This document shows positions 2-32,816 of a DNA stretch of 32,816 bases, piece by piece. Under the pieces are notes generated by a model that ran no database searches, had not been told where the DNA came from, and worked only from the letters and a program-made list of their open reading frames with translations. This DNA is from a virus (taxonomy: Duplodnaviria; Heunggongvirae; Uroviricota; Caudoviricetes). Location of the stretch: IMG/VR virus record IMGVR_UViG_3300037484_000317; one strand, given 5' to 3'. The translations under genes were made by a program, and so were the position numbers. The number at the start of each line of letters is the position of its first letter. Within the stretch, counting starts at the first letter, position 1.

Positions 2-550
2 ATGGTTAAGAACTCTGGTGGCAAGCTCGTCGTCCGACCGGACTCTGGCGACCCTTCGCCAGTCCAACTCAAGAGTCACGCTATCTTCGATCGCAAGATC
101 GGAATGAAGAAGAACATGAAGGGATACAAGGTTCTTCCTCCGTACTTTGGACTCATCCAAGGTGATGGCATCACAGATGAATCGATCCCTGAGATTCTTC
201 ACGCCATTCTCAGCCACGGTTATTCGGCCTCGAACCTTGGATTTGGAATGGGCGGAGGGCTACTCCAAATGGTCAATCGAGACACACAGAAGTGCGCCTT
301 CAAATGCGCAGCGTCCCTCATTAACGGGGACTGGATCGACGTCTCGAAGGATCCTATCACAGACAGTGGCAAGCGCAGCAAGAAGGGCCACCAAGCGCTC
401 ATCCGTGGAGTGGGGATGGACCAGGGCTATAAGACGGTGCGTGGCCCCGTAGCCAATGACATTCTCGTGCCGGTGTACGAAAACGGTGTGGTGCTCAAGC
501 ACTACACGCTCGACGAAGTACGCGCCAACTCGATGAAGGGCCTCGTATGA
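2..550 (+). CDS. nadV: Nicotinamide phosphoribosyltransferase (NAMPT/NadV), C-terminal part, truncated at the window start
   Basis: VVRPDSGDP, LIQGDGI, FGMGGGLLQMVNRDTQKCAFKC and KDPITDSGKRSKKG motifs are characteristic of NAMPT. Confidence 0.93.
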   Translation: MVKNSGGKLVVRPDSGDPSPVQLKSHAIFDRKIGMKKNMKGYKVLPPYFGLIQGDGITDESIPEILHAILSHGYSASNLGFGMGGGLLQMVNRDTQKCAFKCAASLINGDWIDVSKDPITDSGKRSKKGHQALIRGVGMDQGYKTVRGPVANDILVPVYENGVVLKHYTLDEVRANSMKGLV

Positions 551-610
551 TTCCTGGAACGAGAAGCTCCTCAAGAAAATCCAGTGGATGCTTCGCTGTA
601 GGGGAACCCA

Positions 611-2416
611 ATGTCTAAAACACGCGATCTGACCGGGCACAAATTCGGTAGGTTGGTTGTGGTTGGTGGGGGCACTTCAAATCTCACTCAGGTGAAATGC
701 GACTGTGGCCGAGAATTTGAAACTGGGAGATCCAACCTCACCTCTGGGAGCAGCACAAGTTGTGGTAAGGGTACTTGCCACCCCGGCTTCAAGGATCTTA
801 CAGGCCAGAGGTTTGGACATCTGGTTGCTAAAAAGGTCACTTCGGCCAAGCCGGGTTCCAAGAGGACTATCTGGGAATGCTTGTGTGATTGTGGACGTAC
901 ACATGAGGTAGTGACTCAGCTCCTAACTCGCGGGGCTGCCAAGAGCTGCGGGTGCCAGAGTAGGTTGCTGTTCTCTCAAAGGAAGACGCTCCCAGATAAC
1001 CGCAGTAGCGTGAATCGTATCCTCAGCAGATACCGAGAGCATGCTAAGAAACTTGGGGTTGTTTTCTCGCTGTCTCAGGAGGACTTCTGCACATTACTAG
1101 CTGATACTTGCCACTACTGTGGCTCCGAGCCATCCAATACGCGAATGGAAGAGAACCTGACACCTTCCAAAAGAGCGTTCAAATACAGTGGCATAGACCG
1201 TATCGACAGCAATCTAGGATACAGCAGGGACAACTGTGTACCCTGCTGTAAACGCTGTAACCTGGCCAAGCGGAAGATGTCCTACGGGGACTTCCTCGAC
1301 CTGGCTAAGAGCATAGCCTCTAGATTTACCATCGACTCTGGGGCCGCCAAACTTCTGGATCAGGAAAACAGGATCTACATCGTAGCCACAGGGTCTGGGG
1401 CCGGTCTTACCGAGATTCTTTGGCGTGTGCCTGGGATTAGCAGGGTGTTGGTAGGCACGTCGTTTCCCTATGCCACTGAGGCTACAGATCGGATTCTCGG
1501 CTACAAGCCGGAAAACTATTGTTCGGCTGAAACAGCCATTGCTCTGGCCATGGAAGCTTACTATCGAGCTTTTCAGCCGGGATCCTCTCCTGCGATAGGG
1601 TTAGGGCTCACGGGTTCTGTAGCTTCAACAACAGCCCATCGTGGGGACCATCGGGTTTTCGTTGCCACGGTGACAAATAAGGCTTGTCTAGTCTACTCGG
1701 CCACTTTGGTTAAGGGCTTTGGTCCCGAGGCTCGAAAGAGGGATGGTGAGATCTCGGACGCCCTTGGATTGGCTGCCCTCTTTGAAGCCACAGGCCATGC
1801 AGATACTACCAATATCAGTCACAGTCTCCTGGGTTTCGAAAAGAGGGACTGCACCGAAGAGGCTTTGCAGGTGCTTCTCGAACATCCTCTTTTCACAGCA
1901 GCAGGCGCACGTCAGAAGTCGCCTACCAATGGCAACGGTCTTGTTCTATTCCCAGGAGCCTTTAACCCTCCGCACGAGGGTCATAGGTGGATGGCAAAAG
2001 AGCACGATGCCACCTTCCACATCACGATCAATCCACCGCACAAGCCTGCTCTGACCGTGTCTGAGGTTCTACAGCGGGCCAAGATGCTGGAGGGGTTCCC
2101 CCGGCTATTCACGACGGATGACCCCCTCTACTTGGACAAGGCCCGAAGGTTCCCTGGGGCCAAGATCTTGATCGGAGTGGACGCCTTGGAGCGGATGCTT
2201 GACCCGAAGTGGGGGATTGAGATTCCCCCACTGCTAGCGGAGCTTCGCCAACTCGGGATCCGGTTCCTCGTGGCAGACCGAGAAATTGACGGTCAGATCC
2301 AGACCCTTGAGCAAATCACGGGGGCTCCGATGGACATCTGTGAACGGATCTTGCGACCGGCGCAGCATCTTCCCATGTCGTCCACCAAGATTCGGGAAGC
2401 ACGGGCTCAAGGGTAA
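611..2416 (+). CDS. Fusion protein: N-terminal HNH homing-endonuclease-like region, CinA-like domain, and HxGH nucleotidyltransferase (probable NMN/NaMN adenylyltransferase)
   Basis: Two DLTGxxFGxL...CxCDCG repeats, CHYCG and GIDRIDSNLGYSRDNCVPCCKRCN (aa 1-235). Then IVATGSG...GLGLTGSVAS...HRGDHR, LFPGAFNPPHEGH, IGVDALERMLDPKW and MSSTKIR. Confidence 0.8.
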   Translation: MSKTRDLTGHKFGRLVVVGGGTSNLTQVKCDCGREFETGRSNLTSGSSTSCGKGTCHPGFKDLTGQRFGHLVAKKVTSAKPGSKRTIWECLCDCGRTHEVVTQLLTRGAAKSCGCQSRLLFSQRKTLPDNRSSVNRILSRYREHAKKLGVVFSLSQEDFCTLLADTCHYCGSEPSNTRMEENLTPSKRAFKYSGIDRIDSNLGYSRDNCVPCCKRCNLAKRKMSYGDFLDLAKSIASRFTIDSGAAKLLDQENRIYIVATGSGAGLTEILWRVPGISRVLVGTSFPYATEATDRILGYKPENYCSAETAIALAMEAYYRAFQPGSSPAIGLGLTGSVASTTAHRGDHRVFVATVTNKACLVYSATLVKGFGPEARKRDGEISDALGLAALFEATGHADTTNISHSLLGFEKRDCTEEALQVLLEHPLFTAAGARQKSPTNGNGLVLFPGAFNPPHEGHRWMAKEHDATFHITINPPHKPALTVSEVLQRAKMLEGFPRLFTTDDPLYLDKARRFPGAKILIGVDALERMLDPKWGIEIPPLLAELRQLGIRFLVADREIDGQIQTLEQITGAPMDICERILRPAQHLPMSSTKIREARAQG

Positions 2417-6848: not shown

Positions 6849-6985
6849 CGTTCGATTCAATCTCTGAACTCCGACACTCACGAGGCAATCCTCAGGTCGG
6901 TTCTCGCTTCAACGAGATCCGCTTCAGTTGCCTGAAGTCTTACAATCCCTCTGCGAGCAGTCACCGGAGTTCCTCCGGTCAGAAT
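6849..6985 (-). ncRNA. Putative TnpB omegaRNA (reRNA) scaffold overlapping the tnpB 3' end
   Basis: Hairpins ACCGGAG-GAA-CTCCGGT (6979-6963) and CTTCAG-GCAA-CTGAAG (6937-6922, GNRA loop); ends near GAACG at 6849; position typical for TnpB loci; boundaries approximate. Confidence 0.6.
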
Positions 6986-8125
6986 TCGTTCCCCATACGC
7001 TTGGAGATTGAGCGATGCGTTTTCATCCCTGTCGATGCTAAGACCGCAAGAGTCGCAGCAATAGGTCCGTGTCCCAAGGTCCAAGACCAGTTTCACGTTC
7101 CAGCACCTCGAACAGATCTTCGAGGATGGAAAGAATCGATCGGCTACGATCAATCTGACTCCGTACCACTCAGTCTTGTAGGTGAGCTGTCTGCGGACTT
7201 CCCCGAAGGAAGCTCCTGAGACTGCTCTTGCTAGCTTGTGATTCTTGACCATCCCACTGACGTTCAAGTCCTCAATGACGATCACCGAAGGTCGTTTGGT
7301 TTTCACGATCTCCGAAGTCATCTTGTGGATTACGTCGTTCCTCTGAAATGAGACTCGGGCATGGACGCGGGCAAGTCGGGCCTTCGTCTTTGCCCTACGA
7401 TTAGTTCCTTTCTTCTTCTGGCGATTCAGCCGCTTACTGAGTTTCTTGATTAACCGCTGGGAGGCATCAAGGTGCTTGGGATTTTCGTATAGAGTCCCGT
7501 CGGACAGGACTGCAAGGGTCTTGATCCCAAGATCAATTCCAAGTACGGGCCAAGTTGTCTCAACCTTCTTTGGTTCAGCGTCCTCAATGAGAACACTCAC
7601 ATACCAACGGCCAGCTTTCTCACTGATCGTAACCGTTTTCACGGGTCGGTCCGTAGGGACATACCCATGCTCTTTCAATCGGACACGACCAATCTTCGGG
7701 AGCTTGATTGAGGCGGTTGAAACAGAAACCTTCTGGGGGAACTGAAATGAAGCTCTACAGACACCCTTCTTCTTGAACTGGGGGTACCCAGGTTTCTTCC
7801 CAGCTTTCACGTTCTTGAAGAAGGATTGGAAGGCAGAGTGAAGTCGTTGAATTGACATCTGTAGAGTGGAGGCAGTGACCTCGGATAGCCAGGGATGAGT
7901 TGTAATCTTAATGATTGGCAATTGCTTTTGCAAATCAAAAGGCATCAAGGCCCCCTTGACTTTTTCACCCTCAGGTGTAGCCGACTTCTTCTCTTCGTAG
8001 TCCTTATTGCACTCACCCAACGCCCAGTTCCAAACATTCCTGGCCCCATCCGCATGGCGCTTGAACGCCGTGCGCTGGCAGTTGTTCGGATCGAGTTCTA
8101 CCTTGTAGGTTCGAAGAAAGGTCAC
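6878..8125 (-). CDS. tnpB: RNA-guided endonuclease TnpB (IS200/IS605/IS607 OrfB family)
   Basis: N-terminal HTH-like region; RuvC motifs LGIDLG, VIEDL, DRDENASLNL intact; CSRC...CDSC zinc finger; FFPSSKIC. Confidence 0.95.
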   Translation of the reverse strand: MTFLRTYKVELDPNNCQRTAFKRHADGARNVWNWALGECNKDYEEKKSATPEGEKVKGALMPFDLQKQLPIIKITTHPWLSEVTASTLQMSIQRLHSAFQSFFKNVKAGKKPGYPQFKKKGVCRASFQFPQKVSVSTASIKLPKIGRVRLKEHGYVPTDRPVKTVTISEKAGRWYVSVLIEDAEPKKVETTWPVLGIDLGIKTLAVLSDGTLYENPKHLDASQRLIKKLSKRLNRQKKKGTNRRAKTKARLARVHARVSFQRNDVIHKMTSEIVKTKRPSVIVIEDLNVSGMVKNHKLARAVSGASFGEVRRQLTYKTEWYGVRLIVADRFFPSSKICSRCWNVKLVLDLGTRTYCCDSCGLSIDRDENASLNLQAYGERILTGGTPVTARRGIVRLQATEADLVEARTDLRIAS

Positions 8126-9682: not shown

Positions 9683-10378
9683 ATGACTCGAATTACCTTC
9701 ATCAGCGACACCCACGGCCAGCATGGCAAGCTCCGCCTACCTGCTGGTGACATCCTCGTACACAGCGGGGATTTCCTGAGCGGGCGGCTTCCGGACCAGG
9801 GCCTGAGGCTTCTCGAATTCAACGAGTGGCTGGATCTCCAGCCGTTCACCCACAAGATTGTCGTTGCGGGAAATCACGACCACCTTCTTGGCTTGTCAGA
9901 TCACGCAAGTGAATGGCGTCCTAGACTCACGAACTGCATCTACCTGGAAGATGAGGGCGTGGAGGTCGAGGGAATCAAGTTCTATGGTAGCCCGTGGACG
10001 CCCGATTTCTTTCCAGAGCACTGGGTCTTCAATCAGACCCGTGGTTCGGAGAAGACGATAGCGCGATGGGCGAAGATCCCCGATGACACTGAGGTGCTCA
10101 TCACGCACGGCCCACCGTACAAGGTTCTCGATCAGTGCGCAGATATCTACGCTCCGCACATTCCAGCGCATGTCGGGTGTTCCGATTTGAGGCGCAGAGT
10201 CCGTCACCTGAAGAACCTCAAGGTACATGCCTTTGGGCACATCCATGAGGGCGCAGGAACCATCGAAGAGGATGGCATCACGTTCATCAATGCCTCTTCA
10301 TTGGACGGCCGCTACAGTCTTCGGAAATCGCACTGCACTCAGTACGTTTTCAATTCGGATCCAACTCCAAAAGAGTAA
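9683..10378 (+). CDS. Calcineurin-like metallophosphoesterase
   Basis: SDTH, HSGD, AGNHD, ITHGPP and FGHIHE motifs. Confidence 0.92.
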   Translation: MTRITFISDTHGQHGKLRLPAGDILVHSGDFLSGRLPDQGLRLLEFNEWLDLQPFTHKIVVAGNHDHLLGLSDHASEWRPRLTNCIYLEDEGVEVEGIKFYGSPWTPDFFPEHWVFNQTRGSEKTIARWAKIPDDTEVLITHGPPYKVLDQCADIYAPHIPAHVGCSDLRRRVRHLKNLKVHAFGHIHEGAGTIEEDGITFINASSLDGRYSLRKSHCTQYVFNSDPTPKE

Positions 10379-10432: not shown

Positions 10433-12916
10433 ATGTCCAATCTAGCAACCAAGTTCGCTCTACGCAACTTCGCAGGCAAGCCCACCAAGTTCTTCCGAGT
10501 CGAGATGGAAGATCTTGAAGGTCAGGCTCAGGTCGCCAAGAAGTCGGCGTCCCATCACGCACTAATCATCGATCGTTCCGGGTCAATGTATAACGATCTT
10601 GGGGACCTCAAGACGATGGTCGAGAAGCTCCTGACTCTCGGGGAGTTTAACGATCCGTCTCTGAAGGTGTCTCTCATTAGCTACTCGTCCCAGGGGGACG
10701 TGAAGCTCCACTTCTCGCATGTCACGGTCGCTGACGTGATGAAGGCATCGAGTCCCTACCTTCAGGAGATTCGTTCTATTCGTGCAACGGCAATGACCTG
10801 CATCTCGCAAGGATTGGCGATGGCGGAGTCCATCATCGACGACAAGGAAGTGACGTGCGTCACTCTTCACAGCGATGGATTTGCCAATGACTCGTCACCC
10901 TCTGCGGAATCCAGGTCCATCCAGGCGGTGATCGAGAAGTTCAAGAAGCACCCGAACGTTTTCGTCAACACGATCGCCTATCGCGATTGGTGTGACTTCG
11001 GGCTGCTCTCGGGGATCTCAAATGCACTCAGTGGCGTGTGCATCCAGGCCAAGAGCATCAAGCAGGTCTATGAGGCCCTGCACAGCGCGACTGCCCTACT
11101 TGCTGGGTCGATGGCTCCGGCAGTAGAGGTTGGCATTGGGCAAGCTCAGTACCTTACGTTCGTTTCCCGCAAGGCAGGCAAGGTGCTGGGTTCCTCGGAC
11201 AACCTCACGGTCCGTGGTCTCGCGGCGACGGATGACCGTATCGCCTATCGGTACTACGAGGTTGATGAGGCTGCGTACAACAAGCTCTCAGCTCCAGATA
11301 CCATCAACTCTGCGTTCTTCGCAATCCCTGCCTACTGCCGGGCACAGATCAGCGAAGGACGTCTCAATCAGGCGAAGTATGCACTCGTCGCGATGAAGAA
11401 TGATGCACTTCTGAACACGCACTATCGTGCGCTCGTTTCTTCTGACGTGGCTGCTTTTGCGGCGGCTGTCGAGGGTGTCATCGCGAATGGGCTCAGCCTG
11501 GACACCAACTACGGCCTCTCCGTGAAGGGACCATCGGTTCTGCAAGTCCTTTCGGTGCTCGACAAGCACGCGGGTTCGCTCTCGGTCAACCTCAAGGTTC
11601 TCATCGCTGGTTACAAGCGTCGCGGACTCAAGAAGGTGGCTGGAACTCGCCTGGATGATGGAACGCTTCAGGCACCGACAATTGAGTCCCGCAATCGTGA
11701 GAAGGATGCGGAGTGGGTATCGGTCAACAAGTTCGAGATCAACCGCAACACGGCGACGATCAACATGCTCGTCTCCCAGCCCATCGATCTCTTCCCACAG
11801 GGCGGGGGCACTCGAATCGCAAGCGTCAAGGGAGTTAACCTGGACTCGCTTCGCTCGTTCAACAACTACACCCTCGTGGGTGACGGTCAGCTCAATGTGT
11901 CTGCTCTCATGTTCAGGACCACTGACAAGCGGTGCTTTAGTGGTCTGAAGGACATTGGGGCGGTCACCGGAGCCTATGAGCCGAATGCCGCTTTTGCCGT
12001 GGACTTCTCGTCTCTGCCTCTCGTGGACTTCGAGCAGAAGTTCGATTCTGTGGCGCCCACCGAGATCAAGGATCTGGCGCGTCTCACGGTTCTCTCGAAG
12101 ATCCTCACTGGCATGTCGAAGGGGGGCTCGGTGTCTCTCACGTCGGAGCAGATTGTGGAACTCAAGACCCACTATCTGTCGCCAGCACTCAACTTCTCGC
12201 CGCCCACGACGAACGAGTACACGGTGCTGGAGGATGCCATCTCCCAGGGGAAGGTCGATACCCGTCTGTCCTACAAGATTGACGTGGGTATCCCGGCGCT
12301 CACCTCTGTTACGAAGCTCAAGTCTGGTAACGAATATCTCCAGAGGCGTTTCACTCTGACCTTCCTGGACAAGGCCGTGGACAAACCTACTTTGGATCAG
12401 ATCACTCTGCCCAAGGCTAAGTGGGAGATCAAGAAGCTCACGGCTCGAACACAGCTGGATGAGGTCGACAATCTCTCCTATCCGATCTACGAAGGTTTCC
12501 TCGGTCTGGGTTCCACGATTGATATCCCCGTTGCAACCACTTCCACGGATGAGGTCTACCGCATCCTGAAGCTCGCCGGGTGCATCGACCCAGCAGTGTT
12601 CTTCAAGACGATGCGCTCCGGAGACCAGGAAAAGGCTCTTGTGGCCGTATCCGATGCCCTGGAGTACATCGACCGAACAATCGAGTCGTTCTATGACCGT
12701 GTTCGACCACTCGCCTTCTACGTGGGTGCAACCGGACTGGTGCCGGATTCGCTCGATGCAAAGGCCCTCAACGCGGAGCAGCTGTCTACGCAGTTCCCGG
12801 ACGCCAAGCTCTCCAAGGCTGAGAAAGACGATGGGACCTTCTTTGTCCTACCAAATGGGCTGGTGCTGACAATCTACGTGAAGGGTGAATACTTCACTAC
12901 TGGGCAAGCTGCGTGA
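10433..12916 (+). CDS. Large von Willebrand factor A domain protein
   Basis: MIDAS motif IIDRSGSM, then T (AMTCISQGL) and HSDG; about 600 aa unknown C-terminal region. Confidence 0.85.
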   Translation: MSNLATKFALRNFAGKPTKFFRVEMEDLEGQAQVAKKSASHHALIIDRSGSMYNDLGDLKTMVEKLLTLGEFNDPSLKVSLISYSSQGDVKLHFSHVTVADVMKASSPYLQEIRSIRATAMTCISQGLAMAESIIDDKEVTCVTLHSDGFANDSSPSAESRSIQAVIEKFKKHPNVFVNTIAYRDWCDFGLLSGISNALSGVCIQAKSIKQVYEALHSATALLAGSMAPAVEVGIGQAQYLTFVSRKAGKVLGSSDNLTVRGLAATDDRIAYRYYEVDEAAYNKLSAPDTINSAFFAIPAYCRAQISEGRLNQAKYALVAMKNDALLNTHYRALVSSDVAAFAAAVEGVIANGLSLDTNYGLSVKGPSVLQVLSVLDKHAGSLSVNLKVLIAGYKRRGLKKVAGTRLDDGTLQAPTIESRNREKDAEWVSVNKFEINRNTATINMLVSQPIDLFPQGGGTRIASVKGVNLDSLRSFNNYTLVGDGQLNVSALMFRTTDKRCFSGLKDIGAVTGAYEPNAAFAVDFSSLPLVDFEQKFDSVAPTEIKDLARLTVLSKILTGMSKGGSVSLTSEQIVELKTHYLSPALNFSPPTTNEYTVLEDAISQGKVDTRLSYKIDVGIPALTSVTKLKSGNEYLQRRFTLTFLDKAVDKPTLDQITLPKAKWEIKKLTARTQLDEVDNLSYPIYEGFLGLGSTIDIPVATTSTDEVYRILKLAGCIDPAVFFKTMRSGDQEKALVAVSDALEYIDRTIESFYDRVRPLAFYVGATGLVPDSLDAKALNAEQLSTQFPDAKLSKAEKDDGTFFVLPNGLVLTIYVKGEYFTTGQAA

Positions 12917-13365
12917 AAGTCAAAATCGATCACGATCGAGATGGTTGGCACTACTCTGCTAGCAACGATCTCAAGAGCAGTCCTTTTGCGACATACCCGG
13001 AGGCCGTGCGTGCTGCCCTCGCGGGGGGTCACGAGATCGACAACGCTGGGTGGCGTCATCGCATGCTGAGTTGGAACTGGCACAGTCATGCGATCGAAGG
13101 GTATCCAGGCTGGGAGATCGAGATCGAAGAGAGTCCGGCTTTCGTGAAACTCACCCACAAGCGTGGTGTGGACGCAATCGAATCACACGAGATCTCCACA
13201 GCGTGGGACGACACAGCCGCAGTCGACTTCTACCAACGTGACTGGACCAACGATGGTATCCCATTCGTGAGAGAGGGAGAGATCTACTGGTCTGGCTGGT
13301 GGTTCGCGACGATCGCCGAGCGGGATCGTTTTCTGGAGTGGCATCACGCGATGGACGCCAGATAA
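12913..13365 (+). CDS. Hypothetical protein (Trp-rich)
   Basis: GTGA overlap with the vWA gene stop. Confidence 0.7.
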   Translation: MKVKIDHDRDGWHYSASNDLKSSPFATYPEAVRAALAGGHEIDNAGWRHRMLSWNWHSHAIEGYPGWEIEIEESPAFVKLTHKRGVDAIESHEISTAWDDTAAVDFYQRDWTNDGIPFVREGEIYWSGWWFATIAERDRFLEWHHAMDAR

Positions 13366-13367
13366 AC

Positions 13368-14393
13368 ATGCCCACTTCTATGGTCGTCTACGCACGAGTT
13401 GCGTCCCGATATGGCGTAGACCCGAATGACGACCATGCTGTGGACAAGTTCTTCGAGAGGGATCTGCCCCAACTCAGTGCCAAGATGCAGCAAGCCGTCT
13501 TCGAAGAGCTGCTGGCAGCGGATGTGCAATTCTTAGCCAGCGAAAGAGACCTCTCTATGTCCGTGATCGAACCCTGGCTGACAAACTTCATGGTAGGTGA
13601 TGCTTACGGTGCCGGATTCGAGTTTGCCCCACGAGAGCAAATCGAGCGGTTCAACGATGGGATCACCTATCGCAAGCATGGCCTTGATCCCCACCACAAG
13701 CCAGGCGGGACCACAGACGACACCCAGATGACCTTTGCGGTCAAGCACATCGTGGACATCGGATTGGGAACCCGTGCAGTGTCCTTCGCAAACGAGTTCT
13801 GCGAGGTCTACAAGAACCATCCAGCACCCGCCTACGGAAGTCGAATGCAGGAACTTCTTCCGGAAGCTGCCAAGCGACCAGAGCCTGGAAAGTTCCTCAT
13901 GGAGTCCTGCCGAAGTCTCGGTAAGGATAAGTGCGGAGCAGCCATGCGGGCGATCCCTTGTGGCAGTAACCAAGGGGACTTCTACGGGGTCGTTCTCTCC
14001 GCAATCACCCAAGCCCGAGTCACCCACCATCATCCGGACTCTATCGACGCAGCGGTCCTCATTGCTCTTGCTGCCTTCCAACCAGACCCAGACGGGTGGA
14101 GGGCAGCCGCACACTATGTAGGCTGGCCGAGCCCAGAAATTTGGAATCGGGAGACCTGGGACCGGTCCACGACCCGGGGGAAGGACATCGCCCAAGCCGT
14201 CCTGGGGCTCTTGTGGCGGCTCGACACCCTCCACGAGCTTCTGGTAGGGGCTGTGGCTCTTGGAGGGGATGTAGACACCGTGGCGGCGCTCTGCCTGGGG
14301 TTGGGGACGCTCGCTGGCCGCAAGGATGACCTTTCGCCTCGATTGCGTGAAGGGCTCATCGTGCCACAAGAGATTTTGAACCGGACATTTTGA
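13368..14393 (+). CDS. ADP-ribosylglycohydrolase (DraG/ARH family) with a ~60-aa N-terminal extension
   Basis: GDAYG, TTDDTQMT, GAAMRAIP, VTHHHP, GGDVDTVAA motifs; an alternative start at 13557 is possible. Confidence 0.88.
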   Translation: MPTSMVVYARVASRYGVDPNDDHAVDKFFERDLPQLSAKMQQAVFEELLAADVQFLASERDLSMSVIEPWLTNFMVGDAYGAGFEFAPREQIERFNDGITYRKHGLDPHHKPGGTTDDTQMTFAVKHIVDIGLGTRAVSFANEFCEVYKNHPAPAYGSRMQELLPEAAKRPEPGKFLMESCRSLGKDKCGAAMRAIPCGSNQGDFYGVVLSAITQARVTHHHPDSIDAAVLIALAAFQPDPDGWRAAAHYVGWPSPEIWNRETWDRSTTRGKDIAQAVLGLLWRLDTLHELLVGAVALGGDVDTVAALCLGLGTLAGRKDDLSPRLREGLIVPQEILNRTF

Positions 14394-16103: not shown

Positions 16104-16563
16104 GCGTAAGGCAGATCGGTGTCCAGAGTGTGATGACCTGGGACGCATCCCGATGTGCCCCGAATGCCGTCTGAGTCCGCGTGAAGCACTCTGGGTCGAG
16201 CAGGGTGGAATCCCAGCGGACATCGCGGCACAGTTCCGAACGGCAGCACTCGAATTTGAAGCAGCAAATCCCCCACGTCGTGGAGGATTGAGCCCCTTGA
16301 AGTCAAGTATCATTAAGGCTATTCGCGAGATAGGCGAGACGGAGCCCTGTGTGCGAGTCCTCAGTCTCGATGCGAACCTCAATCTGATCGTTGGGTGGAT
16401 TGAGACGCGCTGGTCAGCTAACGAAGTGGAGTACGAGTTTCTTGCGGCTCAAAGTAGGAAGAATGCCCGCAAGAACGTGGACTTCGATACAGAAGCACGG
16501 TCGACCCGATGGCTTGGCTTGCGCTCCTTCTGCGAGAAAGTGGTAAAGGCAGCTGCACTATGA
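16090..16563 (+). CDS. Hypothetical protein with N-terminal CPEC...CPEC zinc ribbon
   Basis: GTG start after GGTGG; stop overlaps the next ATG. Confidence 0.65.
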   Translation: MAKRKRKADRCPECDDLGRIPMCPECRLSPREALWVEQGGIPADIAAQFRTAALEFEAANPPRRGGLSPLKSSIIKAIREIGETEPCVRVLSLDANLNLIVGWIETRWSANEVEYEFLAAQSRKNARKNVDFDTEARSTRWLGLRSFCEKVVKAAAL

Positions 16564-17921
16564 CCCTTCGAAAAATGTCCAATGCCTTCAAGGGCTTCAA
16601 CTTCTACCAGTCGACGTTCGACCCGGTTACGGGCGTTCTCGTCCGCAATGTGGAAGTGCCTGAGCCAGACAAGTCATACTCATCGAGCCCCCGGCCGGGA
16701 ACTCTCGTTCAGTCAGTGGCAAAGAGCCTTGGCGTAGAGTGGGGTGGACTCTACGTGGGGGGAAAGTACCACGAAGCCACTGATGTTTTCGAGAAGCTCC
16801 GACTATCCTGGGCTCGCAAGTATGGTCGGGTCCATCGCACTACTACAATGGTGGGCGGCAAGAAGGTTCGACAGTCATGGGCACACGTACATGACTGGCG
16901 TTCGGAACGTGCCTTCTCTCCCGTGCCTGAAACGATTGACGTCAAGATCACCGACTGGTGCAACTTCGGGTGCGGGTACTGCTACATGGACTCCACGGCG
17001 CAGGGAAAGCACGCTCCGCGTGAGCTGCTTACGAACATCTTCGACGGGCTCAAGGCTGCACCCTACCAGATCGCTTTCGGCGGTGGGGAGCCTACGGCTC
17101 ACCCGGACTTCCCGTGGTTCCTGGAGTACACCAAGTCCAAGGGAACGGTCCCAAACTACACGACCGCGGGGCACATCCTGCGGGATGAAGTCTTCGAGGC
17201 AACCAACAAGTATTGCGGGGGTGTAGCCCTCACGTACCATGCCTTCAAGGGCCCTGAGTACTTCAAGAAGACGTACGACACTTGGCGTTCTCGGTTGGAC
17301 CCACGGGTTCAGCTCAACGTTCATGTGCTCTTCGACAAGGACGTAGCGGACAACCTTCTGGACCTTCAGGAGATTGGACTCCGAGACCTCAACGTGGTCC
17401 TGCTAGCCTACTACCCGGCAATCGGCAGGTCCAACTGGGAACAGATCGCCCCGCGTGGTGTGTACGATGGAACGCTTCCACTCGCACTCAAGGCAGTTCA
17501 GGAGAGCCGATTCAAGATCGCCTTCTCTGAGGGTCTTCTTCCGTACTTCCTGAGCCATCAGCTGCCCGAGGTGGACACTCGTTTTGCTGGACAGCAGGAG
17601 GGTGTCTACTCGTGCTACGTGGATGACAAGGGCCGTGTGAGTCACAGCTCGTTCGATCCACCGAAGGACACTGACCACAATGGTGATCCGGCCGACAACC
17701 GTGGGATTTCGATCTACGACACCAAGTTCCAGAAGATCTGGGAGAAGGGTATGGACGTCCCGCTACCTAGGCACTTCGAGCCCTGCGCCACGTGCGAGTA
17801 CGAATCGCAGTGCCACGTCCCGGAAAAGGCCCACTACCTCACCTGCAAGTTCGCAGAACACAACAAGGCTCCAGTCCTGAATCTCCCCGAGCGTCGGCGA
17901 CGTTTGACTGTGGTAGCTTGA
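16560..17921 (+). CDS. Radical SAM enzyme with a C-terminal Cys-rich (SPASM/Twitch-like) region
   Basis: CNFGCGYC (CxxxCxxC), FGGGEPT, NYTT; C-terminal CATC-x5-C...C. Confidence 0.9.
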   Translation: MTLRKMSNAFKGFNFYQSTFDPVTGVLVRNVEVPEPDKSYSSSPRPGTLVQSVAKSLGVEWGGLYVGGKYHEATDVFEKLRLSWARKYGRVHRTTTMVGGKKVRQSWAHVHDWRSERAFSPVPETIDVKITDWCNFGCGYCYMDSTAQGKHAPRELLTNIFDGLKAAPYQIAFGGGEPTAHPDFPWFLEYTKSKGTVPNYTTAGHILRDEVFEATNKYCGGVALTYHAFKGPEYFKKTYDTWRSRLDPRVQLNVHVLFDKDVADNLLDLQEIGLRDLNVVLLAYYPAIGRSNWEQIAPRGVYDGTLPLALKAVQESRFKIAFSEGLLPYFLSHQLPEVDTRFAGQQEGVYSCYVDDKGRVSHSSFDPPKDTDHNGDPADNRGISIYDTKFQKIWEKGMDVPLPRHFEPCATCEYESQCHVPEKAHYLTCKFAEHNKAPVLNLPERRRRLTVVA

Positions 17922-17938
17922 AATCGTAGGAGAACAGC

Positions 17939-18388
17939 ATGTCACGTCGAATCACCGTAAACGTCGGGTTCATCACCAACTCTTCCTCATGCGTCTACTA
18001 CTTCCCTCGGGAGGTTCTGGATGACCCTGAGGTCAAGGCATTCATCGAAGCATACGGGCTTGGTGGCGGGTACGTGGGATCGGATCTCTGGCACCGTGCA
18101 GAGTGCTCATCCTTTCTCGTAACGAAGGATCAGAAGGTTGAAGCCAAGAAGATCCTTCACTCCTACGGTGATACCGTAGAGGAAATGGACCCGAGCGTTG
18201 GGAGCGAAGCATCTCGCGCAATCAATCCCGACAGTGATGGGGCGTACGTTCTCTACGGGGATGAGTACTCGGACACGACTCACATCCTCTGTGGGATCCT
18301 TTCTGGAGCCATGCACCGTCTCCATGGTGAGAAGAATGTTCCGGAATGGAAGAGCCGCCTGGATGGTTACGTGACGGACTACAACTGA
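17939..18388 (+). CDS. Hypothetical protein with N-terminal FITNSSS motif
   Basis: MSRRITVNVGFITNSSSC; AGGAG RBS; directly after the radical SAM gene. Confidence 0.75.
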   Translation: MSRRITVNVGFITNSSSCVYYFPREVLDDPEVKAFIEAYGLGGGYVGSDLWHRAECSSFLVTKDQKVEAKKILHSYGDTVEEMDPSVGSEASRAINPDSDGAYVLYGDEYSDTTHILCGILSGAMHRLHGEKNVPEWKSRLDGYVTDYN

Positions 18389-27741: not shown

Positions 27742-28436
27742 GTAAGTCAAGTGACATGGCAAAGAGTCTGGCGAATTTCGACTTGGGTGCAGTAGAAGGT
27801 CAGCCCTCGTACGCACTCAAGGTCGCGGTGGCACAATACGCACTCGACATGCAGAATGGGATCCTGGGCAGCGGTGGCCTGGGTCTACACATCGATGACG
27901 TCTTCACGAAGAAGACTGATCTCGATGAGAAGTTCGCCGCCCACCGAGGCCCTCTGCTCAATCTTCTCGCGCTCATCCACAGGGATGGGGGTGAGCACAC
28001 AGACTCCGTTGGTATCCACCAGAGCTACGAGGATGCGGTCCGAGTGTGGGCGAAGCTGCGAGTCAAGGAAGACACCCTTGCGGCAGCCGACCTGGCACTA
28101 CACGCAGTGAACAAGATGGAGCTGGAGATCGAGAACCTCGTGGAGTACGGCACCAGTGAGAGCTGCGAGGAAGAGGAGCTTGCACGGTACAAGGCGGACC
28201 ACCGTGCTGCGTGGGCGGTCTACGATGCGGCCTACGCGGTCTATGCTTCGGGAATGGAGCCCATCCTCTCACAGAAAGAGGCAGCCGAGAATGCGCTGGT
28301 GGAAGCCGCCACAGAACTGCGGGACACCTACGTTGCCAACCTGCCCGCTTGCGAGGAGTGCACGCACGTGGACTGCACTGCGATCCGCAAGTACGACACT
28401 GCCCTGAGAGTCTACCAGGGATTTGCCGAGAAGTGA
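27738..28436 (+). CDS. Hypothetical helical protein
   Basis: ATGA overlap; NLLALIHRDGG motif. Confidence 0.7.
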   Translation: MSKSSDMAKSLANFDLGAVEGQPSYALKVAVAQYALDMQNGILGSGGLGLHIDDVFTKKTDLDEKFAAHRGPLLNLLALIHRDGGEHTDSVGIHQSYEDAVRVWAKLRVKEDTLAAADLALHAVNKMELEIENLVEYGTSESCEEEELARYKADHRAAWAVYDAAYAVYASGMEPILSQKEAAENALVEAATELRDTYVANLPACEECTHVDCTAIRKYDTALRVYQGFAEK

Positions 28437-30892
28437 TGCGACACCACACCAAATCCCTCCTTGACGCAGCGCGTAATGAAAAAGACGTGGAGAACGCCTA
28501 CCGGGGTGAGATCGGCCATCACCGTCCAGAGGTGGGGATCACGTCACCGTTTGGATCTGACGGCTACGCTCAGTGGAAAGATGTGCGAGCGTTGTTGGAG
28601 TTCAAATACGATTTGGCCTTGAAGCAGCACCGAGATCAGTGTGGGGTGCTTGGGCAAATGATCCTGTACCTCAAGAAGTTCGAGCAGGCGGGGCAGATCA
28701 TGCCCAACGTGCTGTTCGTTGGGGACAAGAATGAGTGCTTCGCTCTAGAGGTCGGGGCCGTGAAGCACTTCCTGGCCCTTCCGATCGACTGGTCGGCGCC
28801 GCCCTCCGCTGGGTCTCCGGACCTGACACGGGCGCTGTTAGATGGGCTGGCAATCAGCCCGTTCGTGTTCGACGTGGGATGTGACTTCCGAGACGTGCTC
28901 GACAAGATTGAAGTCTTGGCGAAGGGCGAGGTACACCGCGTCAAGGCGACTGCGGCAAACATCGGGGCCATGTTCACCTTCTGGGAGGACAACGTGTTCC
29001 TACCCACGTCGGGCTTGACTTCAACGGAGCAGGTGGACGTGTTCCTCCGGTGCCTCTTCAAGCCGGACGATGTAGTAGCGCACGGAGCGAACAAGAACAT
29101 CCTCGTAGTCGAGGGTCGGAAGATCCCCATCAACGGCCACCAGTGGCAGTCGTTCATCAATCACTTCGTTCGCGGGTACAAGCCGTCCGAGATTGAAGGC
29201 TTCTACGCGAGCAAAGACCGACTCGTAGAAGACGACTCACGTCGGCGTCAGGGGGCGTTCTTCACACCAACGTTGTGGGTGGCGGAAGCTCACAAGATGA
29301 TTGAAACCGAGCTGGGTGCGGACTGGAGGGAAAAGTGCATCGTCTGGGATCCTGCGTGTGGTACCGGTAACCTCACGCGAGATTACGACTTCGGGAGCTT
29401 GATCCTCTCAACCCTTGAGCAATCCGACGTTGACGTGATCCGAGAGCAAGGATACAACCCAGGAGCCAATCTCTTCCGGTACGACTTCCTGAACGACGAT
29501 AGCAGTCCGTTCTTCGACGGGAAGAACACAATGCCGGATTCGGTAGACGAGATGCTACGAGAGGCAGCGAAGGCTGGGAAGCGCCTTGTGTTCCTGATGA
29601 ATCCGCCTTACGGCACTGCGAACAATGCAGGTACGGAAGAAGGCGACCACAAGGCTGGGATTGCCCTCACTGCGGTAAACACGCAAATGAAGGCGGCGAA
29701 GATCGGTGCAAGCAGCCAGCAGCTCTACGCGCAGTTCATGTACCGAAGTGCCAAGCTCGCAGAGGTGTATGGCTTCAAGCAGGTGACTGTCGCCACCTAC
29801 AGCGTTCCGACCTTCATGTGCAGCGGAAGCTACAAGGGCTTCCGTGACTTTTGGTACTCTCGGCTCTCTTACCGAAGCGGGATGCTGTTCCAGGCTAGCC
29901 ATTTCGCGGACGTCAGTGGCCGATGGGGCGTGTCCTTCACCTTGTGGTCAGAAGGCGTAACCGACTCGCGAGTGGACCTACCCATTGAGCTGAAAGACGT
30001 GAAGAACTTCGGGGTCATCCGGACTGGGATCAAACCCTTCTACAACAGTGATGGACGCGAGGCCAGTAAATGGGTGCGTGAACCACTCAAAGGATTGAAA
30101 GGGGTGGATGCCCCACAAATGAGCAGTGGGCTGAGAGTGAAGGAGGGTTCGGGTTGCCGTGGAACTCTAGTTCCCGGTGCTCTCGGATACATGACTAGTG
30201 TTGGCAACAACATCACGAAGTCGGATACGGATGTATTTCTGACGTCCTCGTGCTCTTCCATGGCCCACGGATTCTCAGTTCTACCTGGAGAGTCCTTCCG
30301 ACGAACAACAGCACTAATGGCAGCCAGGCTTTTGGTGCCGGAGTCTTGGGAACGGTGGACGGATGAATATCTTGCACCGGACACCACACTCCCTGGCTAC
30401 GAGCAGTGGAACGAAGATTGTATCATTTGGGCTCTGTTGTACTCCCGTCGGAACAACTGCACGGCGATGCGCGACGTCTCGTACAAGGGACGCGCCTGGC
30501 GGATCAAGAACAACTTCTGGTGGAAGACACGAGCCGAGTCCCGTGTGCTCTACGATCATGCAGCCTGCGGGCAGATCACGGCGGATTTGCGGGCAGAAAC
30601 CACCGACAGCTACCTAGCTAGCATCTTACCCACACTCAATCTCAGCCCGGAAGCCCAGGCGTGTCTCACGCAGTTGGATGCGCTGCTAGTGAGCACACTT
30701 CCGCACCGGGAGTCGTTTGCTACGGCACGCCCAGAGCTTCACCTGATGGCTCACGACAGCGGGATTTATCAGCTTAAGCACCTGTTCAAGGAGTACGAGC
30801 CAGAGGCGTGGAAGGCCCTACAGGTGAGCTTCAAGGCCCTAGCAGATCGCCTGCGACCGGGGGTCTACGATTTCGAGTTTCTTCGGGCGTAG
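28436..30892 (+). CDS. Type IIG-like fused restriction endonuclease / amino-DNA methyltransferase
   Basis: N-terminal NEKDV...SDG...LLEFK...Q (PD-(D/E)XK-like); GAFFTP, VWDPACGTGNL (motif I), MNPPY (motif IV); TGATG overlap. Confidence 0.82.
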   Translation: MRHHTKSLLDAARNEKDVENAYRGEIGHHRPEVGITSPFGSDGYAQWKDVRALLEFKYDLALKQHRDQCGVLGQMILYLKKFEQAGQIMPNVLFVGDKNECFALEVGAVKHFLALPIDWSAPPSAGSPDLTRALLDGLAISPFVFDVGCDFRDVLDKIEVLAKGEVHRVKATAANIGAMFTFWEDNVFLPTSGLTSTEQVDVFLRCLFKPDDVVAHGANKNILVVEGRKIPINGHQWQSFINHFVRGYKPSEIEGFYASKDRLVEDDSRRRQGAFFTPTLWVAEAHKMIETELGADWREKCIVWDPACGTGNLTRDYDFGSLILSTLEQSDVDVIREQGYNPGANLFRYDFLNDDSSPFFDGKNTMPDSVDEMLREAAKAGKRLVFLMNPPYGTANNAGTEEGDHKAGIALTAVNTQMKAAKIGASSQQLYAQFMYRSAKLAEVYGFKQVTVATYSVPTFMCSGSYKGFRDFWYSRLSYRSGMLFQASHFADVSGRWGVSFTLWSEGVTDSRVDLPIELKDVKNFGVIRTGIKPFYNSDGREASKWVREPLKGLKGVDAPQMSSGLRVKEGSGCRGTLVPGALGYMTSVGNNITKSDTDVFLTSSCSSMAHGFSVLPGESFRRTTALMAARLLVPESWERWTDEYLAPDTTLPGYEQWNEDCIIWALLYSRRNNCTAMRDVSYKGRAWRIKNNFWWKTRAESRVLYDHAACGQITADLRAETTDSYLASILPTLNLSPEAQACLTQLDALLVSTLPHRESFATARPELHLMAHDSGIYQLKHLFKEYEPEAWKALQVSFKALADRLRPGVYDFEFLRA

Positions 30893-30955: not shown

Positions 30956-31267
30956 ATGGCACAATATGAGATCACAAGATTGGATTCAACTCACGTTAGG
31001 GTCACTGGAACAGACCTAAGCAAACCTTGGATCATCCCAAATCGGGGCAGATTTAAGATTCAGTTGGGTTCAGAGGATGGGTTTGTGCATATCTCCGAGA
31101 CTGTAACGAAAGGTGTAGGGACCTTTGAGTCCTCTCCCGGCCCAAAGGGGAGTGCGGACATTACTGTTCATGGGTCTGGAACCACTCGTATTGTCGTTTC
31201 AGGGGGTGTTCTAAAGTGGCGTGGGCCACCCCGGTGGATGCCTCATCACCACATGGATATTACCTGA
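30956..31267 (+). CDS. Hypothetical protein
   Basis: AAGGAG RBS before ATG 30956. Confidence 0.55.
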   Translation: MAQYEITRLDSTHVRVTGTDLSKPWIIPNRGRFKIQLGSEDGFVHISETVTKGVGTFESSPGPKGSADITVHGSGTTRIVVSGGVLKWRGPPRWMPHHHMDIT

Positions 31268-31944
31268 GCAACCCGTCCCAGTTCCCTCGGATGTAGTCCT
31301 TGTAGCGGATCTGTTGGTTGGAGCGATGGTCGGTCACCCGATCATCTTGCTCACGAATCGTACGGATTTTGTCCCCACGCATACCCGAGCCAATCTGGCT
31401 TCGACGGGAGCTTGCACGCTCTTCAGTTGCAGCCGCTTGACGCGTCTCGAAGATACGCGCCCTTAGGACACGCATGGCTGTCTCACGATTCTGGTGCTGG
31501 GATCGTTCGTTCTCGATGCGAACACGCAGTCCAGTAGGGATATGGGTCATCTGAACTGCTGATTCCGTCCGATTCCGGTGCTGCCCGCCAGCACCGGAAC
31601 CCCGACAAGTCTGCCACTCGATGTCCTTGTCCTCGATGCGGAGATCATTCTCCCGAGGCTCTTCAAGGACCGCAATCGTAACAGTCGATGTTTGCACCCG
31701 ACCCCGCTTCTCATTAGGAGGCACTCTTTGCCAGCGGTGGCCTCCTGACTCCATGGCGAACACCTTCTTGGCGTTCTTGCCACTGGCTTGAAACGAGAGA
31801 TACCCGGAAGCCTCCTCTATGATGAGGCAGTCAAAGCCCCCTCCGCTCCATCAGCCGTGCATACACAGCGAACTGCTCACGAACAAGCGCCTTGGCATCC
31901 GCCCCACCTTCTCCGGCTCTGATTTCGACTATCACGCTTTCCAT
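31260..31944 (-). CDS. Class I peptide chain release factor-like protein (RF1-like, lacking domain 1), expressed through a +1 frameshift; about 227 aa
   Basis: ORF1 31944-31831 MESVIVEIRAGEGG...RRGL-stop; ORF2 31832-31260 with ESGGHRWQRVPPNEKRGRVQTS, GSGAGGQHRN, RSQHQNR, KIRT; GGAGG RBS. Confidence 0.88.
31830..31844 (-). promoter_or_regulatory. prfB-type programmed +1 ribosomal frameshift site
   Basis: GGAGG-GGG-CTT-TGA-C: internal Shine-Dalgarno, 3-nt spacer, slippery CTT, in-frame TGA. Confidence 0.88.
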
Positions 31945-31973
31945 TTTCACTGCCTCCAATGTTGACTACGGAG

Positions 31974-32044
31974 CGGTCCCGGCATGAATCGAACATGCCT
32001 AGCTGAGTTTAGAATTCAGAGCCTAACCACTAGGCTACGGGACC
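31974..32044 (-). tRNA. Amber suppressor tRNA, anticodon CUA (amino-acid identity uncertain, Trp- or Gln-like)
   Basis: Cloverleaf GGTCCCG-TA-GCCT-AGTGGTT-AGGC-T-CTGAA-TTCTAAA-CTCAG-CTAG-GCATG-TTCGATT-CATGC-CGGGACC-G; CCA not encoded. Confidence 0.9.
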
Positions 32045-32107
32045 TTGATCTCGACTTGCTGGGTGTCATTTCAATTCGCGCCCCATCAAGGGGCGAGTAT
32101 AGCGTTG

Positions 32108-32419
32108 TCAGGCGAAAGCGAGAGGAAGACTTCTGACTAGCTTACGCCCTGATGGGCCAATAGCAATAGCAGCGAGGGCGCCGCCCAAATCGGGCTCTTC
32201 GAATCGGGAGACGGGCACCCCCTGCCGTGCCGCCTGATCAGCAAGCACGGTGAGGGAGTCCAGGCTATCGGTTTCCAGAAGCACGAGCGTGTTGGAGTTC
32301 TTGTACCATTTCCGGTTCAATTCCTCATGACCCTCCGTGAATTCTCGGAGGGCATGGCAGAGCATGGCTGCCCGAAGTCCAGCGTTCAGGTCTCGACGGG
32401 TCACGAGAAAGAGCTTCAT
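32108..32419 (-). CDS. Peptidyl-tRNA hydrolase, Pth2-like
   Basis: KLFLVTRRDL..G...A...HA, LVLL, FEEPDLGG...AIAIGP...LPL. Confidence 0.82.
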   Translation of the reverse strand: MKLFLVTRRDLNAGLRAAMLCHALREFTEGHEELNRKWYKNSNTLVLLETDSLDSLTVLADQAARQGVPVSRFEEPDLGGALAAIAIGPSGRKLVRSLPLAFA

Positions 32420-32814
32420 GCTGTCTCCCGAAGTTTCGCTTGAAGGGCTTCCTTTTGGCGATCGAGGTCTGCCAATCTGCGCAGATTGGCCTCTCTCTGT
32501 TCTACGACCTGTTTCTCCTTGGCGAGTCTTGCGTCTTCCTCTGCCTTCACCTTTGCAGCAGCCAGACGGACCTTGACTTCCTCTTGGACCTCAGCCTTGA
32601 TAGCAGCCATCTCCGCGAGGAGCGACCGCTTCTCTTTCTCCTCTTCTGAGAAGTCATTTGCCTTTTCGTCGGCGGGGAACTCAGCCACCCACTCGTCGTC
32701 GGGAAGGCCATTGAGGTAGAGAAGATGTGTTCGCCCCTCGTACTCCTCTTCCGAGCCCGTCTCATGGAGAGAAGCCTGGACGTGGGATCGGACAAGGACG
32801 TCGATGACCTCCGA
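32416..32814 (-). CDS. Hypothetical coiled-coil protein, 5' end outside the window
   Basis: Frame is open from the window edge (SEVIDVLVRS...); stop overlaps the Pth2 ATG. Confidence 0.65.
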   Translation of the reverse strand, partial: SEVIDVLVRSHVQASLHETGSEEEYEGRTHLLYLNGLPDDEWVAEFPADEKANDFSEEEKEKRSLLAEMAAIKAEVQEEVKVRLAAAKVKAEEDARLAKEKQVVEQREANLRRLADLDRQKEALQAKLRETA

Positions 32815-32816
32815 GC

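Follow-up and report, generated by a model that had tools for sequence, protein, structure and literature searches.

This study concerns a 32,816-nucleotide stretch of a Caudoviricetes virus (IMG/VR record IMGVR_UViG_3300037484_000317; the whole stretch is hereafter called the window). On its minus strand, a gene for a protein resembling peptidyl-tRNA hydrolase 2 (Pth2-like), a tRNA gene with the anticodon CUA, and a release factor (RF) gene split by a frameshift adjoin one another, all co-oriented. We consider it probable that they constitute two independent modules of a large phage with the standard genetic code, both likely to sense stop codons: an operon of the Pth2-like gene and the tRNA, gated by a leader, and a shortened RF1, gated by the frameshift. 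The window is assigned to a large phage on account of its gene content, described below, and of the size of its closest relatives, which are virus contigs reaching 390 kb. Among relatives of the operon, the leader stop codon covaries three ways with the tRNA anticodon, and the reading frame behind that stop covaries with the size of the anticodon loop. Both covariations are new here, as are the division into two modules, made with controls, and the presence of chromosomal copies of the RF gene in Myxococcota.

The Pth2-like gene (positions 32,108–32,419, minus strand) was identified by profile and predicted structure, and encodes 103 residues of a divergent PTH2-fold subfamily, which we term FxEPD. 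It ends 63 nt before the tRNA gene (31,973–32,044, minus strand), which was detected by ARAGORN and matched by the Rfam tRNA model (54.9 bits, E = 2.4e-9). The tRNA forms a cloverleaf with U33-CUA-A37 in a 7-nt loop (UUCUAAA), as is characteristic of an amber suppressor tRNA, and carries an A31-C39 mismatch, a G1-C72 pair, and G73, with the CCA end not encoded. G73 and U35 are presumably indicative of charging with Gln or Lys. A pyrrolysine system is considered unlikely for this 33 kb of phage, as the ARAGORN label follows the anticodon, the Rfam match is generic, and no pyl gene was present among the 30 window proteins scanned. Of 42 Pth2-like loci, 24 have a tRNA with the anticodon CUA, UUA, or UCA at a distance of up to 1.5 kb, and 26 have one at up to 3 kb (identical duplicates and one false match, L179, were left out). 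No such tRNA was detected at 17 canonical Pth2 loci, or up to 3 kb from any of 74 further RF loci, from which seven near-duplicates and L009 were omitted. The tRNA bodies are diverse, with a median identity of 58% among 38 sequences, and the sequence pattern of the window tRNA matched only the copy at the related locus L010; yet the anticodon stays CUA, UUA, or UCA. The two are also consecutive genes in the cultured mycobacteriophages Cane17 and ScoobyDoobyDoo. Judged from these gene neighborhoods, the Pth2-like gene and the stop-anticodon tRNA are a conserved pair.

In relatives, the order is a leader with its stop and a motif encoding Arg-Gly-Pro-Pro (RGPP), gene X, the Pth2-like gene, and the tRNA. 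Gene X, which lies 5′ of the Pth2-like gene in many loci, encodes a basic protein of 100–150 residues with the motif HxxAYxxLRGxxY, for which no convincing match was obtained in Pfam, PHROGs, PDB sequences, or the ESM Atlas. The leader is a short open reading frame (ORF) of 1–23 codons having no secretion signal, and its stop is followed by the RGPP motif CGYGGWCCYCC, typically located 62–81 nt before gene X. A rule that took no account of the tRNA was used to collect leaders and yielded 43 from 45 loci (none from L165 and L223), 34 of them with a tRNA label. The leader stop was the codon of the anticodon in 33 of these 34 loci (15 TAG, 12 TGA, and 6 TAA), a result reached in 0 of 100,000 permutations. 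The sole mismatch, L038, combines a TGA leader with an apparent UUA tRNA whose loop UUUAAG resembles that of tRNA-Leu(UAA); it was counted as a miss, although this tRNA was not retained in the later analysis of frames and loops. The leader peptides of L218 and L219 are homologous; one ends in TAG beside a CUA tRNA, the other in TGA beside a UCA tRNA. The reading of UAG in vivo by the CUA tRNA of the window is a prediction resting on this covariation.

The region behind the stop was evaluated for 44 leaders, a set that excludes L165 and L223 and includes L402. All 44 carried the motif (RGPP in 41 and FKPP in 3), while it occurred after 56 of 2,631 ordinary genes used as a control. An RGPP-encoding upstream ORF placed before a gene whose ribosome-binding site is occluded is the layout of an arrest-peptide attenuator, and this layout was found in the relatives, with significant pairing over the binding site in 23 of 43 loci. 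The motif occupied frame 0 in 25 leaders, the +1 frame in another 19, and the +2 frame in none; an A follows the stop in all 19 of the +1 leaders (18 UGAA and 1 UAGA). For the 33 loci with an unambiguous tRNA register (2 others are mixed, and 9 have no tRNA in reach), the +1 frame accompanied an 8-nt anticodon loop in 11 of 11, and frame 0 accompanied a 7-nt loop in 20 of 22. L045 serves as a control here, having a TGA stop, frame 0, and 7-nt loops. The co-occurrence of +1 RGPP, UGAA or UAGA, and 8-nt loops points to natural four-base decoding. The 8-nt-loop tRNAs of L219, L221, and L394–L415 (A-[CU]U-UCA-A-N), located 0.3–2.3 kb after the start of the Pth2-like gene and labeled "tRNA-???" by ARAGORN, are hence candidate natural four-base decoders at UGAA; our literature search was not aimed at natural four-base tRNAs, which limits any statement on their novelty. 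That the tRNA is a non-decoding decoy or a decaying relic, with its neighbors assembled by chance, is scarcely to be expected. The odd-loop tRNAs with non-stop anticodons at some Pth2-like loci and the unencoded CCA of the window tRNA would suit such a view, but the covariation of anticodon with leader stop over three stops, and of loop size with frame, would not.

Two individual operons may be described here. In genome G001, the operon leader ends in UAGA with RGPP in the +1 frame; at locus L088 (1847–1922 and 2645–3027), an atypical tRNA (loop CGCCUAA, called as Arg-CCU) and a tmRNA come after the Pth2-like gene. In the complete 392-kb phage G003, locus L116 has a leader with two in-frame TAG codons before RGPP, gene X, and a CUA tRNA, with the RF gene about 160 kb away. 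Two in-frame cognate stops also occur in the leaders of L160, L177, L178, and L215.

The window itself begins this operon only partway. The nearest relatives of its Pth2-like gene are L010 (81% identity; tRNA also 81% identical) and L011 (76%; same intervening gene), and both have gene X, a TAG leader, in-frame RGPP, and a CUA tRNA. The 7-nt CUA loop of the window predicts the same TAG leader with in-frame RGPP, which very probably lies just past the window end, where gene X is also expected. Immediately upstream of the Pth2-like gene is a 5′-truncated gene (32,416–32,816, minus strand) encoding a charged helical C-terminus, of which the TGA overlaps the Pth2-like ATG (ATGA). This gene exhibits 31% identity to positions 9636–9989 of L011, where gene X precedes the homologue and the Pth2-like gene follows it, and it gave no family match in profile searches of the window proteins. 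Promoter and terminator scans of the window end and of L011 gave nothing exceeding chance.

The second module, the RF gene, starts 28 nt after the tRNA gene on the same minus strand. A Shine-Dalgarno (SD) sequence GGAGG (31,953–31,957) stands 8 nt 5′ of the ATG at 31,944, from which frame 0 (31,831–31,944) runs for 37 codons, encoding a β-strand and helix α5 of domain 2, and ends with CTT TGA (TGA at 31,833–31,831). The sequence GGAGG-GGG-CTT-TGA-C (31,830–31,844) constitutes a +1 frameshift signal of the prfB type, SD-N3-CTT-stop, at the conserved position and in the +1 register. Reading would then continue in the +1 frame (31,260–31,832; 190 residues, ending with TAA), giving a fused protein of 227 residues. 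An assembly error as the cause of the frame change was rejected, since contigs from three public sequencing runs cross the site gap-free with 0, 5, and 8 differing letters; the run with no difference may be the source sample. One such contig extends from the tRNA to just 5′ of the RF start. A natural unshifted relative of 227 residues (P0015) starts at the same residue as frame 0. The frameshift signal recognized in the sequence-only reading of the window is genuine, as is the co-oriented adjacency of all three genes that it described.

The fused protein comprises the C-terminal half of the PCRF domain (model positions 101–194 only) and the RF-1 domain of Pfam. It scored 199 bits with prfA, 135 with prfB, and 86.2 with prfH (TIGR03072, cut-off 166.65), all below the NCBIfam cut-offs. 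Its alignment to solved RF1 chains begins only at residues 87–111, which is the start of domain 2, showing that the N-terminal domain 1 of the approximately 355-residue bacterial RF1 (prfA) is absent. Comparison with PDB sequences gave E = 3e-55 for RF1 versus 4e-15 for PrfH, and identity with PrfH was rejected on this difference and on the prfH score. RtcB does not adjoin the RF gene in the window or in one bacterial locus, where ORFs were inspected by eye; the neighborhoods of other relatives were not scanned. The SPF motif of RF2 is likewise absent, and the family forms its own clade beside RF1. By these comparisons, the window protein is a shortened factor derived from RF1. It carries the GGQ motif (31,589–31,581) and a recognition loop QRVPPNE, in which PPN (31,721–31,713) replaces the PPT of most relatives. 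A PxT-type motif would predict the codon specificity of RF1 (UAG and UAA, not UGA).

The frameshift is a general property of this RF family. Profile searching of viral contigs yielded 182 relatives, 80 of which were retained; counting near-duplicates and excluding L009, CTT-stop occupied the same codon in 73 of 81 viral loci (60 TGA, 10 TAG, and 3 TAA). Five of the other eight are in frame there, two (L046 and L055, near position 9990) have an in-frame TGA or TAG at the usual site in place of the shift, and one (L057, 9860–9900) has the signal moved to codon 8, ahead of the first conserved strand. In L085 and L186, the gene is gated by an in-frame TGA approximately 15 codons further on. In L009 (4682–7275), about 2.1 kb interrupts the gene just past the recognition loop region, representing an intron or insertion element. 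L043, L052, and L063 have a shortened recognition loop, most of which is gone, while GGQ and the frameshift are kept; these members are possibly codon-independent release factors. Among species genomes, 149 bacterial matches were obtained, mostly from Myxococcota, and the site was present in 77 of the 80 loci kept (52 TGA, 23 TAG, and 2 TAA), with one in frame and two cut by contig ends. All five bacterial carriers checked also have RF1-type and RF2-type genes, one of the RF1 genes being interrupted. A FastTree phylogeny of 172 rows placed the family in one clade (support 98) beside RF1, within which phage and bacterial rows are mixed (21 changes); over the 150 labeled rows, the sensor stop has changed at least 28 times. 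The recognition motif did not track the sensor stop among the relatives. A Myxococcota-like host of the phage is inferred from these RF relatives.

The sequence-only reading had combined the three genes into a co-evolved cassette for partial amber read-through of phage genes, serving late timing or an intermediate stage of a code change. Besides the adjacency and common orientation in the window, this proposal may draw on a published module of Jade phages that consists of a suppressor tRNA, a synthetase, and RF1 (Borges et al., bioRxiv 10.1101/2021.08.26.457843). It may also draw on the frequent sharing of a genome, as PF01981 genes occur in 26 of 48 RF contigs and RF genes in 8 of 25 Pth2-like contigs. 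However, the triad was not found elsewhere: the lack of a stop-anticodon tRNA at the 74 other RF loci indicates that it is local. The RF and Pth2-like genes are 114 kb apart in G001, the closest RF relative, and the nearest other approaches are 3.7 kb (L168, with a distant RF) and 7 kb (L045). The three genes are hence two separable modules, and the adjacency of the RF gene in the window is a convenient clustering. In addition, an RF1-type factor would oppose amber suppression.

The genetic code was examined with a self-trained hexamer gene caller, which is crude (coding density of 0.62 in the window), for the window and for 13 relatives sampled over 76–392 kb each, several of these genomes being covered in part only. 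Under code 11, the window and 13 of 13 relatives reached their best total coding score. The exception to this uniformity is the density of G007, which rises from 0.795 to 0.822 (+2.7 points) under code 15, while its total score is lower. TAG represents 8–26% of called stops in the 13 relatives, and ends 3 of 28 called genes of the window, which is of the same order as the "about five" apparent TAG stops counted earlier. A homology test flagged 6 stops in approximately 221,000 aligned codons, with none in the 4,150 of the window; four are mixed in one alignment resembling a shadow frame, one lies in a doubtful 5′ extension, and one is opposite a gap, so that none was convincing. Code 15 was rejected for this 33 kb of phage on the total score, the clean aligned codons, and the use of TAG as a stop, and code 4 was also rejected; no alternative code scored better in the 13 relatives. 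The phage uses the standard code without recoding, which agrees with the earlier impression that the window reads cleanly in code 11 and is not fully recoded. A code-change intermediate or a late-gene timing code finds no support in the same TAG shares and scores, and we regard the cassette proposal as a whole as very improbable. What survives of it is that the system is regulatory, concerns the handling of stop codons, and keeps its CUA tRNA under selection; the target is the leader stop, which was not visible in the window. As a separate observation, G002 and G007 share a dataset number, one having the RF gene and the other the Pth2-like/tRNA operon, each about 4 kb from the contig start, and may be two pieces of one phage.

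The Pth2-like protein satisfied the PTH2 family profile of Pfam (PF01981, 33.9 bits against a cut-off of 23), and only 29.9 bits against a cut-off of 126 was obtained with the NCBIfam Pth2 model. Its AlphaFold model (pLDDT 97.8) superimposed onto 1wn2 with Z = 15.5 and a root-mean-square deviation of 1.7 over 101 aligned residues. H22, F73, E75, and P76 are invariant in the class. The lysine of the canonical GKxAAQ motif is absent, its column not being conserved, and DAGxT is replaced by EPDL (FxEP). We take this Lys and the Asp/Thr of DAGxT to have the catalytic roles in canonical Pth2, and the protein thus lacks them while its His and Glu are invariant. Peptidyl-tRNA hydrolase activity is accordingly only putative. 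A yeast Pth2 D174N mutant is reported to be inactive (bioRxiv 10.1101/2024.11.20.624519), and no primary paper on the catalysis of such PTH2-like proteins was found in the literature searched. Two PTH2 classes exist in these phages, frequently both in one genome. A further subgroup with the motif REPDxPxxG was noticed in L208, L210, L212, L213, L222, L167, and L176, where the adjoining tRNAs are malformed or non-stop (AAU, UAAG, CUCG, and UUCG).

In the mechanism we propose, host or phage enzymes would process the tRNA and charge it, and at the leader stop the CUA tRNA would be in competition with the release factor of the host. By reading through this stop, or by decoding four bases in the case of the 8-nt-loop versions, it would allow the ribosome to reach Arg-Gly-Pro-Pro, where stalling is predicted to occur on very short nascent chains. 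The stalled ribosome would cover the CCUCC strand, by which the ribosome-binding site of gene X is otherwise masked (median pairing energy of −11.9 kcal/mol), and gene X and the coupled Pth2-like gene would then be translated. The Pth2-like protein would likely free tRNA of peptides left by failed termination. In parallel, +1 slippage at the slow internal UGA would supply extra release factor. It is established for prfB that +1 slippage rises when the release factor is late at the stop, and suppressor tRNAs compete with the release factor, read-through increasing when it is late. Both gates would hence open when host termination is weak, as in heavy late translation or under a defense that targets translation. 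Two unrelated gates that swap the three stops, one yielding a release factor with GGQ and the other a Pth-fold protein, are most simply explained by a response to weak termination. A broader idea, to which we give slightly less than even weight, is that co-evolution links a private stop-anticodon tRNA to its leader codon over UAG, UAA, and UGA, with one branch moving to a four-base word (an 8-nt-loop UUCA tRNA reading UGAA to enter RGPP in the +1 frame). Together with a third release factor shared with Myxococcota, they would answer a loss of host termination, which would imply an undescribed defense or stress directed at release factors.

Several observations weigh against this proposal. The leader rule was written after the sequences had been viewed, and two one-codon leader rows of the 44-leader set were corrected by hand. 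Most of the +1/8-nt cases belong to one clade (61–93% identity), so that the test overstates independence and the effective sample is below the counts. The CCUCC pairing beats shuffled sequences in only 23 of 43 loci, and for 16 of the 42 Pth2-like loci, a canonical stop tRNA is lacking up to a distance of 3 kb. G003 has the leader, gene X, and CUA tRNA with no Pth match, and the Cane17 and ScoobyDoobyDoo loci keep the pair with no leader or gene X detected, indicating that the leader can be lost. There is no CGNGGNCCYCC match in the window, its own leader and gene X lying outside, and a single-protein scan gave no closer relative of its truncated upstream gene. The altered catalytic motifs of the Pth2-like protein also count here, and weak termination as the trigger in vivo is a proposal only.

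The same wiring could alternatively make the tRNA a timer or master switch of the phage for several stop-gated leaders, with gene X and the Pth2-like protein acting as a feedback brake that binds or deacylates the charged suppressor. The match between the leader stop and the tRNA of its own operon is what such autoregulation predicts, the leaders with two in-frame cognate stops would need strong suppression, and the altered active site is compatible with a brake. We nevertheless hold this to be unlikely, though it is the strongest of the competing explanations: the unrelated gate of the RF gene swaps the same three stops, which fits sensing of host termination, and no second gated leader was detected in the window, a genome-wide search not having been made. 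Termination independent of release factors is another conceivable function, in which the stop-anticodon tRNA accepts the nascent chain and drops off, and the Pth2-like protein cuts the peptide. All three stop anticodons adjoin a Pth-fold gene, and 31:39 mismatches are enriched in the stop tRNAs (10 of 32, against 65 of 1,037 sense tRNAs), as this function might lead one to expect. It is improbable, however, since the leaders are sensible only if the ribosome passes the stop to RGPP, and one tRNA covers one or two stops, usually not TGA, the commonest in the phage.

Weak-termination sensing by two modules would employ parts of known kinds, namely a prfB-type shift, arrest-peptide attenuation, and a suppressor tRNA. 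The RF gene resembles prfB in its internal SD, 3-nt spacer, CTT-stop-C, short first ORF, and class I product (Prince et al., PMC12421855). It differs in that the product is RF1-like and lacks domain 1, any of TGA, TAG, or TAA can serve as the stop, and the gene is an extra paralogue beside RF1 and RF2. If the product is of the PxT type, a TGA gate would amount to cross-regulation and not to the autoregulation of prfB. In the accessible text of that survey of 12,753 genomes, TAG occurs in 0 of 8,164 prfB motifs, and no programmed shift is given for prfA. PrfH/RFH is also a patchy, mobile class I factor without the N-terminal domain, probably acting in rescue (Burroughs and Aravind, PMC6514570), while the window factor is far nearer to RF1, is gated by a frameshift, and showed no RtcB linkage at the two loci inspected. 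The accessible text of that paper makes no mention of phage, frameshift, or PTH2. RF1 and RF2 are recorded in huge phages (Al-Shayeb, PMC7162821), in a text of which the part at hand does not mention "frameshift."

The leaders resemble the RAPP/RGPP arrest peptides (ApdA, ApdP, ApcA, SecM, and Streptomyces upstream ORFs), for which an RGPP-encoding upstream ORF is present and stalling should uncover the ribosome-binding site of the following gene (Fujiwara et al., PMC12992588). In the phages, by contrast, the motif lies behind a stop and is reached only via read-through or four-base decoding by the tRNA of the operon. RGPP arrest is described as robust and EF-P-refractory in several contexts in the available portion of that paper, in which phage, suppressor, and readthrough are not mentioned. 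Recoded phages (Jade, Lak, and Agate) likewise carry adjacent genes for a suppressor tRNA and a release factor, and pair RF2 with the amber tRNA (Borges et al., as above). The window genome, unlike these, is unrecoded and has no synthetase, its target is a leader, and its factor is of the wrong type for amber suppression, because an RF1-type factor would compete with the amber tRNA, the opposite of the RF2 pairing. Pth2 of archaea, eukaryotes, and jumbo phages (1wn2) shares the fold and the AxQ/H helix, and in jumbo phages was proposed to act in ribosome rescue (Iyer, PMC7824862). The FxEPD subfamily differs in lacking the GK lysine and DAGxT, coexists with canonical Pth2, and is the only one tied to stop tRNAs. 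Parts of Antonov (PMC3711429), PMC13037316, and PMC11202043 were included in the literature basis. Neither the wiring, the Pth2-like/stop-tRNA pair, nor a frameshifted short RF1 was found described in the literature searched, which left most subscription papers and supplements outside, and supplements may list such genes.

To our knowledge, the stop-anticodon tRNAs of standard-code phages (e.g., the "tRNA-Pyl" of cluster C mycobacteriophages) have so far had no target, and they are often taken for signs of incipient recoding; a target that can be tested is now provided by the covariation. If the four-base reading is true, the 8-nt-loop tRNAs with UGAA leaders would be natural four-base decoders, directly useful for genetic-code expansion. 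The RF family represents programmed frameshifting in an RF1-type gene, includes UAG gates that are absent from the prfB/prfA survey, and occurs in cultured Myxococcota; annotation pipelines truncate its frameshifted members.

Other window genes recognized by profile encode NAMPT, an RNA ligase, a TnpB-like protein, a von Willebrand factor A (vWA) protein, an ADP-ribosylglycohydrolase, and a radical S-adenosylmethionine (SAM) protein. Positions 2–2416 (plus strand) hold NAMPT followed by a 601-residue protein with N-terminal Cys-rich/HNH-like repeats, a middle that appears CinA-like by eye, and a cytidylyltransferase-like end; these probably form an NAD salvage pair with a homing-type fusion. 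A protein of approximately 820 residues (28,433–30,892, plus strand, ending with TAG) contains DPACGTG and NPPY motifs and by eye resembles a type IIG-like adenine methyltransferase, with no Pfam, NCBIfam, or PHROG match at E = 0.001. An IS605-type TnpB (Cas12f1-like) gene (6878–8125, minus strand) is opposed to the direction of the adjoining genes. The vWA (10,433–12,916), ADP-ribosylglycohydrolase (13,299–14,393), and radical SAM (16,509–18,388) genes, the last with a small "FITNSSS" partner gene, are all on the plus strand and are conflict-related and typical of large phages.

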